DNA of 32,000 nt. Source: Deinococcus radiodurans R1 = ATCC 13939 = DSM 20539 (GTDB lineage: Bacteria > Deinococcota > Deinococci > Deinococcales > Deinococcaceae). The notes beneath the pieces are model-generated. The model worked only from the letters and a program-made list of their open reading frames with translations. It ran no database searches and was not told the origin of the DNA. This document shows, one piece after another, positions 28,376 to 31,878 of the stretch. Each line of letters begins with the position of its first letter. Positions within the stretch are counted from its first letter, which is position 1. Location of the stretch: assembly GCF_000008565.1 (NCBI RefSeq), contig NC_001263.1, positions 571,213 to 603,212 of the forward strand. Reading direction: 5' to 3'. A program made the translations under genes and the position numbers.

Positions 28376-28381
28376 TATCCT
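28376..28381 (+). promoter_or_regulatory. Candidate -10 box (TATCCT) for a leaderless clpS-mrr-clpA transcript
   Basis: TATCCT lies 7 nt before ATG 28389. Confidence 0.45.
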
Positions 28382-28388
28382 CGGAGCC

Positions 28389-28730
28389 ATGACCCGCCCG
28401 ACCATCCCACCCGGCCCGCCCGGCGCCGAGGGCCGCACCCAGACGCTGGAACGCACCGAGACCAAAAAACCGAGGCTGTGGCGCGTGCTGCTGCTCAACG
28501 ACGACTACACCCCGATGGACTACGTGGTGCAAGTCCTTGAGCAGTTTTTCCGCAAGACCGAGCAGGAAGCTGAACTCATCATGCTCGCCGTTCACCACAA
28601 GGGGCAGGGTGTGGCGGGCGTGTATACCCGCGACGTGGCCGAAACGAAGGTCGCGCAGGTGACGGCCCACGCCCAGCGTGAGGGGCACCCGCTGCGGGTG
28701 GTGGCCGAGCCGGAGAGCGAAGGGGAGTGA
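28389..28730 (+). CDS. clpS: ATP-dependent Clp protease adaptor ClpS
   Basis: 'WRVLLLNDDYTPMDYVVQVLEQFFRKTEQEAELIMLAVHHKGQGVAGVYTRDVAETK' is the canonical ClpS core. 113 aa, embedded in a longer spurious listed ORF (27174..28730). Confidence 0.93.
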   Translation: MTRPTIPPGPPGAEGRTQTLERTETKKPRLWRVLLLNDDYTPMDYVVQVLEQFFRKTEQEAELIMLAVHHKGQGVAGVYTRDVAETKVAQVTAHAQREGHPLRVVAEPESEGE

Positions 28731-29647
28731 CCGTTCCCGACTTTCAGGCGTTCATGCGTCCGATGCTGGAGCAGATTTCCAGCGGTGAGCCGCAGAAAAT
28801 AGCCGAGCTTTACCGGCGACTGGCCGAATTTTTTGCCCTGACGCCGCAGGACACCGAAGAACTGCTGCCGAGCGGCAAACAGGCCAAGTACCACAACCGC
28901 ATTCTGTGGGCCAAGTTTCACCTGGACCGGGCGGGTGTCCTCACCACACCCAGTCGAGGCGTCGTACAAATCACGCCTCTGGGCCGCGAATTTCTGTCGC
29001 GTTATCCGGAACACATCGGGATGCGCGAGCTTCAGACCATTCCGGCTTACGCCGAGTTCACCCGCAGGAGCCGCTCACCGGCTCAGAGTCCTGCGCCCGC
29101 CGCACCGCCCCAGGCCGAATGTTCTGCCAGCGTGCCGCCTGCCGAGCAAATTGACGCTCTCTACGCCGAACTCACCGCCAACCTCGCCGAAGAATTGCTC
29201 GCGCAGGTCAAGGAGCTTTCGCCCGCGCAGTTCGAGCGGCTGGTGGTCGAGGTGCTGGTGGCGATGGGCTACGGCGGCAGCGTGCGCGACGCGGGGCAAG
29301 CACTCGGGCGCAGCGGCGACAACGGCATCGACGGCCTCATCAAGCAGGACCCGCTGGGCCTCGACCGCATCTACCTGCAAGCCAAGCGCTGGAAAAACAC
29401 CGTCCACAGCCCCGAAATTCGCACCTTTTCGGGCAGCCTGACCTACCACAAGGCGACCAAGGGCGTGTTCATCACTACGTCCGGGTTCAGCGACGGGGCA
29501 AAGGCCACCGCCGGGCAAATCGGCAACATCATTTTGCTGGATGGTGAAACGCTCGCCCACCTGATGATCGAGTACGGCGTGGGCGTGCTGACCCGCGAGA
29601 CCTACCAGATTCGCCGCTTAGACGCGGATTATTTCGAGGAGTTGTAA
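28727..29647 (+). CDS. mrr: Mrr-family type IV (modification-dependent) restriction endonuclease
   Basis: N-terminal Mrr_N winged helix ('VPDFQAFMRPMLEQISSGEP...YHNRILWAKFHLDRAGVL...ITPLGREFL'). C-terminal Mrr_cat with D...QxK ('DNGIDGLI...IYLQAKRW') and 'GVFITTSGFS'. GTG 28727 overlaps the clpS TGA (GTGA). Confidence 0.88.
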   Translation: MTVPDFQAFMRPMLEQISSGEPQKIAELYRRLAEFFALTPQDTEELLPSGKQAKYHNRILWAKFHLDRAGVLTTPSRGVVQITPLGREFLSRYPEHIGMRELQTIPAYAEFTRRSRSPAQSPAPAAPPQAECSASVPPAEQIDALYAELTANLAEELLAQVKELSPAQFERLVVEVLVAMGYGGSVRDAGQALGRSGDNGIDGLIKQDPLGLDRIYLQAKRWKNTVHSPEIRTFSGSLTYHKATKGVFITTSGFSDGAKATAGQIGNIILLDGETLAHLMIEYGVGVLTRETYQIRRLDADYFEEL

Positions 29648-29652
29648 GCCTG

Positions 29653-31878
29653 ATGCTTTCCGAACACCTGCAAGCCGCCCTGCAACGCGCCGCCGACCTC
29701 GCCCAGGCGGCGGGGCACGAGTACATCACCCAGGAGCACCTGCTGCTCGCGCTGCTGGGTGACCCCGAGGCCAAAGACGCCCTGAATGCGCTGGGAGCCG
29801 ATCTAAACGCCCTGCGCGAAGCCTTGACTGAGCAACTCGCCGAACTCGACATCCTCGACGACCCCGACCCCGACTTCACCCTGGGCGTGCACCGCGTGGT
29901 GCAGGGCGCCGTGCTGCAACTGCACGCCAGCGGCAAGGGAAAGGAACAGGCCGACGGCGCGCGCGTCCTCGTCGAACTGCTGGAGGAGGACGACAGCCCC
30001 GCCCGCGCCGCGCTTGAGGCGCAGGGCGTGACCCGGCTCGACCTGCTGAACTACCTGTCGCACGGCGTGGCGAAAGCGCCGGGCCACAGCCGCGAACGCC
30101 GGGTGGCCGGGGTAGACGGCGAATTGACGGCGGAGGGCGCCCCCGCCGAGGAAAACCCGCTGGAAGCCTACGCGCAGAACCTCACCGAGGCGGCAAAAAA
30201 CGGAGAGTTCGACCCGGTGATTGGCCGGGGCGCCGAACTCGAACGGGTGGTGCACATTCTGGCGCGGCGCGGCAAGAACAACCCGGTTCTGGTGGGCGAG
30301 CCGGGCGTGGGCAAAACCGCGCTGGCTGAGGGGCTGGCACAGCGGGTGGCCGATGGCAAGGCGCCCGGCTTCCTGCGGGGGGCGTCGGTGTACGCGCTCG
30401 ACCTGGGGGCACTGTTGGCCGGCACGCGCTACCGGGGCGACTTCGAGGGGCGGCTCAAGGCCGTGCTGGCCGCGCTCGACGGGCAGAATTCGGTGCTGTT
30501 CATAGACGAGCTGCACACCCTGGTCGGCGCCGGGGCGACAGAGGGCGGCAGTGTGGACGCCGCGAACCTGCTCAAGCCTGCGCTGGCGCGGGGAAAATTA
30601 CGGGTCATGGGCGCCACCACGCCTGCCGAACTGCGCCTGCTGGAAAAGGACCGGGCGCTGTGGCGACGTTTTCAGACGGTGGACGTGCCCGAGCCCTCCG
30701 AGGCCGACGCGGTGCAGATTTTGCAAGGCCTCGCGCCTAAGTACGCAGCCCACCACGGCGTCACCTACACTCCGCCAGCCCTGGAAGCCGCCGTGCGCCT
30801 CTCGGCCCGCTACCTGCGCGACCGCTTCCTGCCCGACAAGGCGATTGACGTGCTCGACGAGGCGGGGGCGGCCCGCAGTAGCACTGGCCAGGGCGGCGAA
30901 ATAGACGTGCCCGACATCGAAAGCACGGTGGCACGCATGGCCCGCGTGCCGGTAGGCGCGGTGAAGGCCGAGGAAGTGCAGAGCCTCGCCACGCTGGAAG
31001 CCGACCTCAACCGCCGGGTTTACGGACAGGAACCCGCGGTAAGCGCAGTGTCCTCGGCGGTCAAGCTCGCCCGCGCGGGCCTGCGCAACCCGCAAAAGCC
31101 GCAGGGGTCGTTCCTGTTTGCCGGGCCGACTGGGGTGGGCAAAACTGAACTCGCCCGCGCGCTGGCCGAGCGGCTGGGCGTCGAACTTATCCGCTTCGAC
31201 ATGTCCGAGTACCAGGAGCCGCACACGGTGGCTCGCCTCATCGGGGCGCCTCCCGGCTACGTGGGCTTCGATCAGGGCGGACTGCTGACCGACGCGGTGG
31301 CGAAAAACCCTCACGCAGTGCTGCTGCTCGACGAAATCGAGAAGGCGCACCCCGACGTCTACAACATCTTCCTGCAACTGATGGACCACGGCACCCTGAC
31401 CGACCACGCGGGCAAAAAGGTGGACGGGCGCGGCCTGATTCTGATTTTCACCACCAATGCCGGGGCCGCCGACGCCAGCCGCCCGGCGCTGGGTTTCTCG
31501 CGAGAGGGCCGTGCCGGAGAGCAGGCCGAGGCCGTCAAGCGCACCTTTACCCCCGAGTTCCGCAACCGCCTGGACGCCGTAATTTACTTCGCGCCGCTCT
31601 CGCGCACGGTGATGACCAGCGTGGTGGACAAGTTCCTGCGTGAGCTGGGCGAGCAGCTGACCGAGCGCGGCGTGACCCTGACCGTGACCCCCGCCGCCCG
31701 CGCCCGCTTGGCCGAACTGGGCTACGACCCGCTGCTGGGCGCCCGGCCCCTCGCCCGCGTCATCGAGGACAAGCTGGGCCGCCCTTTAGCCGACGAACTG
31801 CTGTTCGGGCGTCTGAAGGACGGCGGCGCGGTGAAGGTGGGCGTGCAGGGCGGGGAATTCAGCTTTGCCGTGAGCTGA
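29653..31878 (+). CDS. clpA: ATP-dependent Clp protease ATP-binding subunit ClpA
   Basis: Clp_N repeat '[11 protein letters not shown]'. Two AAA+ modules ('[15 protein letters not shown]', '[17 protein letters not shown]'). No long ClpB-type middle domain. The ATG lies 5 nt after the mrr stop. Confidence 0.93.

Follow-up and report, generated by a model that had tools for sequence, protein, structure and literature searches.

How a gene for an Mrr-type restriction endonuclease came to lie between the gene for a protease adaptor and that for its unfoldase is the question raised by the clpS-clpA region of Deinococcus radiodurans R1, in which clpS (DR_0586), mrr (DR_0587) and clpA (DR_0588) follow one another in that order. 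We addressed it in a 32,000-nucleotide (nt) stretch of the genome (NC_001263.1, positions 571,213 to 603,212), hereafter the window, in whose numbering the coordinates below are given unless a locus label precedes them. We think it likely that a solitary, functional type IV mrr gene entered the locus once, in an ancestor of one Deinococcus subclade and precisely where the clpS stop and the clpA start overlap, and that it has been passed down from there. Taken together, our comparisons favour reading the arrangement as an accessory insertion, specific to one clade and inherited within it, that hitch-hikes on the clpS-clpA operon.

All three genes lie on the + strand, and the open reading frame (ORF) list and the sequence place them exactly where the preliminary description of the locus had put them, junctions included. 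The first, clpS (28389-28730; ATG at 28389, TGA at 28728-28730), encodes the 113-amino-acid (aa) ClpA adaptor, which matches Pfam ClpS with E = 1e-34 and the NCBIfam ClpS equivalog NF000672 at 121.6 bits (cut-off 112). The second, mrr (28727-29647; GTG start at 28727, TAA at 29645-29647), encodes a 306 aa type IV methyl-directed restriction endonuclease, and the third, clpA (29653-31878; ATG at 29653), a 741 aa AAA+ unfoldase with the architecture typical of ClpA (Clp_N, two AAA+ modules and ClpB_D2-small in Pfam). The top NCBIfam match of DR_0588 is TIGR02639 ClpA, at 933 bits slightly under the curated cut-off of 993, and its identity to ClpA of other Deinococcus species is 69–88%. In D. radiodurans clpS and clpA are not contiguous, the 921-nt mrr ORF standing between them: the mrr GTG start shares its bases with the clpS TGA stop in the 4-nt overlap GTGA (28727-28730, +), and 5 nt (GCCTG) separate the mrr stop from the clpA ATG. 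The hexamer GAGGAG (29636-29641, +), 11 nt 5' of that ATG, consists of the Glu-Glu codons of the Mrr C-terminus (YFEEL followed by the stop) and resembles a Shine-Dalgarno (SD) sequence, a role it may well play for clpA. The same 4-nt overlap and 5-nt gap appear in the published re-annotation of D. radiodurans (PMC8533742, supplement, Table S7), which gives ClpS at 598497-598838, a 'restriction endonuclease' at 598835-599755 and ClpA at 599761-601986 under the old names DR0586, DR0587 and DR0588. DR_0588 has also been given as ClpA elsewhere (PMC5731708), and DR_0587 is one of three Mrr paralogues of D. radiodurans, with DR_0508 and DR_1877 (PMC2587704), as well as the 'Mrr2' of REBASE and of the SLICER paper (RM4; PMC10085245).

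Public records hold two start calls for DR_0587, one of 306 aa on 101 contigs and one of 297 aa (ATG 28754) on 89 contigs, the shorter of which drops conserved N-terminal residues and masks the overlap with clpS. We judge GTG 28727 to be the right start because the N-terminus is conserved in homologues (M-[ATP]-[VI]-P-D-[FY]-Q in 20 of 20 aligned sequences, P4 and D5 being nearly invariant and Q7 invariant), because Mrr_N begins at residue 6, and because the upstream codons are conserved: in the nine codons 5' of ATG 28754 the differences from D. wulumuqiensis are mainly synonymous, with the protein level conserved.

Read from that start, the protein matches Mrr_N (PF14338), a winged-helix DNA-binding domain, at 28742-28999 (+; 97.3 bits against a cut-off of 29.5, E = 5.7e-28; residues 6-91 on profile positions 1-86 of 87), and Mrr_cat (PF04471), a PD-(D/E)xK nuclease domain, at 29210-29566 (+; 125.2 bits against a cut-off of 21, E = 1.7e-36; residues 162-280). 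The putative catalytic codons are D202 (29330-29332), Q218 (29378-29380) and K220 (29384-29386), all on the + strand, and E170, D202, Q218 and K220 (the last two forming Q218-A-K220) are invariant across the alignment of 20 Mrr homologues. Over its whole length the protein also matches the PADLOC mREase_IV profile PDLC03657 (E = 1.1e-80; residues 1-304 on profile positions 1-315 of 317). A search of PDB sequences with DR_0587 found no relative at E <= 0.001, and we therefore used a fold search, in which the AlphaFold model (mean predicted local distance difference test score, pLDDT, of 76.8) had MspJI, AspBHI, RPB5 and AF1548 as its best matches (E 3e-4 to 9e-3), all of them Mrr-like nuclease folds. 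The ratio of non-synonymous to synonymous substitution rates (dN/dS) is 0.14 against D. wulumuqiensis, at a synonymous rate (dS) of 0.87, and 0.10 against PESE-13, values by which we consider mrr to be under purifying selection. The earlier impression that the Mrr ORF looks functional is thus borne out by two full domains, the invariant D202 and Q218-A-K220, and this selection. E. coli K-12 Mrr combines the same Mrr_N winged helix with a PD-(D/E)xK Mrr_cat domain bearing D...QxK, shares the N-terminus M-T-V-P, and is likewise solitary, having no cognate methyltransferase; DR_0587 has as neighbours an M29 aminopeptidase gene, clpS and clpA, and no adjacent cognate methyltransferase. The two differ in that the E. 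coli gene is not in a clp operon, lying with hsd and mcrBC in the 'immigration control region', and in that the Deinococcus enzyme is known from sequence.

That mrr might instead be inert or decaying, a passenger that is catalytically dead or goes untranslated, is suggested by a published knockout. The homology-arm primers for 'Mrr2' in the SLICER study map to 27831-28831 and 29553-30552 of the window, so that the internal deletion made there is of this very gene and spares both of its junctions. The resulting strain grew without defect, and its transformation with plasmid prepared from E. coli Epi300 was not significantly altered (PMC10085245); as indirect evidence on methylation-dependent cleavage this result is negative. 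The presence of DR_0508 and DR_1877 as further Mrr paralogues is a second point in favour of this reading. However, dN/dS stays at 0.10–0.14 over dS of up to 0.87, the full-length ORF keeps its four invariant residues and its end-to-end PADLOC match, and mrr mRNA is detected and regulated in the RNA sequencing (RNA-seq) data discussed below, and hence the gene is expressed. We therefore regard an inert passenger as very improbable, and take DR_0587 to be a genuine type IV restriction gene that is expressed and under selection, with predicted activity. By its primer positions the SLICER deletion removes ~721 nt of mrr, 28832-29552 (one primer has 2 mismatches in the machine-read supplement); if 721 nt is exact, the residual mrr ORF would be frameshifted, and this could alter translational coupling into clpA. 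The gene is, then, one already annotated and knocked out, and its position is a mildly interesting operon invasion rather than a new system; in the literature on DR_0587 and DR_0588, on Mrr together with ClpA, and on the ClpS/ClpA pair of Deinococcus, our search found no paper on the clpS-mrr-clpA gene order.

The position of mrr breaks an arrangement that is otherwise widely kept, the same two genes in the same order and orientation occurring in E. coli, most Proteobacteria, Myxococcota, Acidobacteriota and other Deinococcus. A ClpA-based scan with one genome per species gave 80 loci (the best ClpA matches), 78 of them with both genes present, and clpS directly adjoined clpA in 77 of the 78 loci of other species, with a median gap of ~17 nt. 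The premise that clpS and clpA are normally adjacent held up in this comparison of species, in which the 80 best ClpA matches included no Thermus locus. In most species of Deinococcus the stop of clpS and the start of clpA overlap as ATGA or GTGA with CCGGAGG 8–12 nt upstream, the 3' end of clpS holding both the ribosome-binding region and the stop/start overlap. In D. radiodurans, by contrast, a foreign ORF of 921 nt occupies this junction, the overlap serves mrr, and clpA begins 5 nt past the mrr stop.

We found mrr between clpS and clpA in five lineages only, all of them Deinococcus: D. radiodurans, PESE-13 (L087), the D. wulumuqiensis group (L081-L086 and L091-L093), and two metagenomic lineages, L178 and L180. 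Identity to the D. radiodurans Mrr is 98% in PESE-13, 82% in the wulumuqiensis group, 84–85% in L178 and 81% in L180, and ClpA N-terminal identity for L178 and L180 is 74–75%. The mrr start overlaps the clpS stop in all five, as GTGA, as TAGTG (wulumuqiensis, L178) or as TAATG (L180). The downstream junction is equally tight wherever no other gene follows mrr, with 0–5 nt from the mrr stop to clpA (0 nt in L178, 3 nt in L180), and GAGGAG or GAGGAA also precedes clpA in L178, in L180 and in the wulumuqiensis leader. The D. wulumuqiensis locus has orthologous clpS, mrr (82%) and clpA (87–88%), the M29 gene upstream and the overlap of mrr with clpS; it differs in that mrr is followed by an NAD-dependent epimerase/dehydratase gene and then by a leader of 125–275 nt, with a CATAAT box and a small ORF, before clpA.

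Other cargo occupies the same place in relatives that have no mrr there. In a metagenome-assembled genome (MAG), L019 (L019:4422-8247), the same epimerase (68–69% identical) lies alone between clpS and clpA, and in D. proteolyticus (L174/L175:4637-9913) the epimerase gene is followed by an opposite-strand gene for an ABC2-type membrane protein and by a MarR gene, the end of which is 10 nt 5' of clpA. On these gene orders the clpS|clpA junction appears to behave as a small variable slot in one Deinococcus clade. In a neighbour-joining tree of the N-terminal 307 residues of ClpA (L178, with only 113 aa of ClpA, was left out), the lineages bearing mrr or the epimerase cluster, the L019 MAG branching apart, and all placeable mrr-bearing lineages fall within one clade. 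As the clp-embedded mrr genes that could be placed are thereby in a single clade, we conclude that one event probably gave rise to them all. The suggestion that a defence gene had recently been inserted into a housekeeping operon is accordingly upheld as regards the insertion, which is limited to one Deinococcus subclade and sits in a slot with other cargo in relatives; it is not upheld as regards its age, as the insertion is common to at least five diverged lineages and dS between D. radiodurans and D. wulumuqiensis is ~0.9, so that it is not very recent.

Two features of the comparison weigh against a single insertion that was simply inherited. In this single-gene ClpA tree the mrr-bearing L180 has next to it D. 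antarcticus (L006), whose clpS-clpA is uninterrupted, and therefore precise loss, allele replacement by recombination or an error in the tree is needed to account for it; bacteria of this Deinococcus clade are naturally transformable. The overlap of mrr with clpS has also been kept in five lineages despite its altered sequence (GTGA, TAGTG, TAATG), and selection for coupled expression of Mrr and ClpS could be an alternative cause of this.

For an insertion with later inheritance, the junctions themselves suggest how it might have been accommodated. We propose that mrr took over the former initiation region of clpA, that is, the purine-rich clpS 3' tract (GAAGGGGA) together with the termination-reinitiation overlap, and that the native Glu-Glu-Leu codons ending mrr (GAGGAGTTG; GAG GAG TTG) would supply the displaced clpA with a new SD-like site. 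The C-terminal FEEL of Mrr is conserved in homologues from unrelated genomic contexts. Since the C-terminus encodes GAGGAG near its end, the gene would have been pre-adapted to a non-polar, 'seamless' insertion, and the insertion would have been tolerated because it was non-polar. The simplest cause of the tight junctions would then be selection for continued expression of clpA, and not a partnership of Mrr with ClpS or ClpA. The clpS promoter would serve all three genes, their mRNA probably being leaderless (TATCCT-N7-ATG), and their translation would be coupled, so that Mrr would ride on the expression of the housekeeping operon.

Among 80 metagenomic Mrr loci none had ClpS or ClpA within 4 kb, and two closer Mrr homologues, P0007 (74% identity) and that of D. 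aestuarii (62%), lie in unrelated contexts that are not near clp genes. The G+C content at third codon positions (GC3) of mrr is below that of its neighbours in every Deinococcus context checked, which would suit a mobile accessory gene. For the same reason low GC3 is a trait of the family, and as a sign of recent arrival it is weakened. We also considered whether mrr and the epimerase gene move together as a two-gene cassette, and rejected this, the epimerase encoded beside mrr in D. aestuarii being unrelated to that of D. wulumuqiensis (E = 0.003, 27% over 149 aa). Likewise unsupported was the idea that the D. radiodurans mrr is a chimera of two epimerase-flanking copies, divergence along the gene having no 5'/3' asymmetry.

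How the three genes are expressed bears on whether their association has any further meaning. A -10-like TAnnnT element, TATCCT (28376-28381, +), stands 7 nt 5' of the clpS ATG and is the sole + strand TANNNT in 28300-29700 by regular-expression scan; counterparts 6–7 nt 5' of the clpS ATG occur in PESE-13 (TATCCT), D. wulumuqiensis (TATTCT), L178 (TATCCT) and L180 (TATGCT). Leaderless mRNAs with a TAnnnT -10 element are common in Deinococcus (PMC4007540), and the conserved element therefore fits that promoter architecture, making TATCCT a candidate promoter from which clpS, mrr and clpA could be transcribed as a leaderless mRNA. A consensus scan of 27800-32000 found no sigma-70-like promoter, and the only terminator-like site on the + strand of that region, at 31425, is inside clpA, with none at the clpS-mrr or mrr-clpA junction; consensus and regular-expression scans alike thus agree with the preliminary description, which had named TATCCT-N7-ATG as the sole promoter-like element and reported no promoter or terminator at the junctions. 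As a statistical signal we rejected the presence of only one TAnnnT, the window-wide median being 2 per 1.4 kb, with one or none in 31% of such windows; scarcity of this kind is typical of this GC-rich genome, and is therefore compatible with a single promoter but is no evidence for one.

More direct information came from published RNA-seq (PMC8533742, supplement), comprising ten time-course contrasts in a control strain and in DdrO-depleted cells. At 16 h ClpS, Mrr and ClpA rose 1.93-, 1.95- and 1.83-fold in the control strain and 4.66-, 4.16- and 4.32-fold in DdrO-depleted cells, and over the 10 contrasts their log2 fold changes were correlated with r = 0.89–0.97 (0.95–0.97 for Mrr against ClpS and ClpA). 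The M29 aminopeptidase gene upstream (DR_0585; 27199-28341, +), which ends 47 nt before clpS, was anticorrelated with all three (r = -0.37 to -0.60). The co-variation of the three mRNAs and the anticorrelation of the gene before them therefore support one transcription unit that would start between the aminopeptidase gene and clpS, a single clpS-mrr-clpA unit as judged by the correlation of mRNA fold changes. Two points tell against reading too much into this: the case for co-transcription is a correlation over only 10 contrasts in which the 16 h points dominate, and many other genes in the same table also rise at 16 h, e.g., ParA (4.3-fold) and FtsH (11-fold). The earlier statement that Mrr is expressed in fixed stoichiometry with ClpS and ClpA can accordingly be kept in part; co-expression from one promoter is backed by the RNA-seq, but a fixed stoichiometry of the proteins goes beyond what RNA-seq addresses.

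These expression data allow a second reading, in which no proteolysis is involved but the position in the clp operon was co-opted for regulation, tying Mrr to the conditions that induce clpS and clpA (late growth, stress) and so raising defence when exposure is highest. The joint rise of the three genes at 16 h (~1.9-fold in the control, 4.2–4.7-fold on DdrO depletion) and the clpS-proximal position of mrr in every lineage that bears it both accord with this. Yet common descent accounts for the kept position, the slot takes unrelated cargo too, no phenotype was found for the Mrr2 deletion, and the locus is outside the radiation/desiccation response regulon (flag 'NO' in Table S4 of PMC8533742). 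We consider such co-option unlikely.

A third reading, favoured in the preliminary description, is that the association is a functional coupling, in which ClpS/ClpAP degrades or restrains Mrr (e.g., during DNA repair) and co-expression matches a self-toxic nuclease to a protease. The co-variation of the clpS, mrr and clpA mRNAs and the overlap of mrr with clpS in all five mrr-bearing lineages are what it would lead one to expect, and it has precedents in E. coli, where ClpXP degrades HsdR in restriction alleviation and where a further type IV enzyme, McrBC, is susceptible to ClpAP according to a review (PMC12707154). The McrBC report counts against a pure hitch-hiking explanation, since it means that a Clp link to type IV enzymes is not unprecedented and that the idea of proteolysis is not absurd. 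Against it stand the genomic comparisons: Mrr does not recur by clp genes in the 80 other Mrr loci or the two closer homologues, D. proteolyticus and the L019 MAG have each lost mrr from this slot, and in D. wulumuqiensis mrr is split from clpA by the epimerase gene and the spacer of 125–275 nt. The protein offers no obvious handle either. The N-degron recognised by ClpS is an exposed N-terminal Phe, Leu, Trp or Tyr (the N-end rule), and the primary N-terminus of Mrr, M-T-V-P (M-A-V-P or M-P-I-P in relatives), is not of this kind, so that a ClpS degron on Mrr could arise only via endoproteolytic processing; the C-terminus, FEEL, is not ssrA-like. The HsdR precedent, which the preliminary description had cited, is of limited help. 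It is alike in that a Clp protease limits a potentially self-damaging restriction nuclease, but it concerns a different enzyme type and a different unfoldase, ClpX and not ClpA/ClpS, and its substrate is the translocating motor subunit of a type I enzyme (EcoKI), recognised on DNA (PMC12707154). Unlike type I HsdR, DR_0587 has no ATPase or translocase domain in Pfam. The hsdR and clpX genes are not linked in the genome, and we know of nothing like this control that has been shown for any Mrr; our literature search likewise found no paper tying Mrr to ClpA. In sum, nothing in our results supports proteolytic control of restriction by ClpS/ClpA; we think a functional coupling quite unlikely and infer that no proteolytic link underlies the arrangement. 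The narrower proposal that Mrr is restrained post-translationally by ClpS and/or ClpA, e.g., cleared during post-irradiation genome reassembly, seems to us equally doubtful. If it were true, the lasting fusion of the mrr start to the clpS stop in five lineages would be accounted for by selection for matched synthesis, and Mrr would be the first example of a restriction enzyme hard-wired at the gene level to its protease.

Several further features were noted in and around these loci. In D. wulumuqiensis and in the L019 MAG an ORF of 21–27 codons stands directly 5' of clpA (L082:7106-7189, L091:6986-7069 and L019:5939-6004). It starts with ATGACCGT(T/C)CCC (MTVP), which equals the first 12 nt of the D. 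radiodurans mrr except for ATG in place of GTG, and its terminal TGA shares bases with the GTG start of clpA; 5' of the ORF are CATAAT in wulumuqiensis and TAGACT-N6 in L019. At its 3' end the wulumuqiensis ORF (GATTCCGAGGAGTTGCCCGTGA) looks like the stretch in D. radiodurans and L180 where mrr ends and clpA begins, and a gapped alignment of the small ORF to mrr outdid all 300 shuffles in the case of L091 and 297 of the 300 in that of L082. From these resemblances the small ORF may be a collapsed mrr remnant marking an ancestral mrr-clpA junction, or a leader ORF or peptide. Only in the lineages of radiodurans, wulumuqiensis and L178 does the M29 gene adjoin clpS. The aminopeptidase stop overlaps the clpS start (GTGA) in L091, which is metagenomic, and the M29 gene of L081 appears as two match segments. 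The clpA gene of L081 (L081:7184-9402; D. wulumuqiensis GCA_014875925.1) is in two ORFs of 240 and 503 aa, and that of a Deinococcaceae MAG (L078:6001-8197) has a frame break, each reflecting a frameshift or an assembly error. In another Deinococcus MAG, whose ClpA is 83% identical to that of the window, no clpS occurs in the 288 nt between the contig end and clpA (L001:1-288), a relatively AT-rich stretch that may be another interrupted clpS-clpA junction. An Rfam scan of the window matched only two adjacent tRNA genes (5671-5741 and 5771-5842, +), far from the locus.

Since the clp operon encloses the published 'Mrr2' deletion, clp-related phenotypes of such strains need a check for polarity. 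Should the nested position of mrr prove functional, proteolytic restriction alleviation would no longer be confined to type I enzymes and ClpXP but would take in a type IV enzyme and ClpS/ClpAP, in an organism that has to reassemble a shattered genome without cutting itself. As they stand, the data suggest that a defence gene can enter a near-universal two-gene operon non-polarly, by reusing the start-stop overlap at its front and by providing, from its own last codons, a ribosome-binding site for the gene that it displaced.

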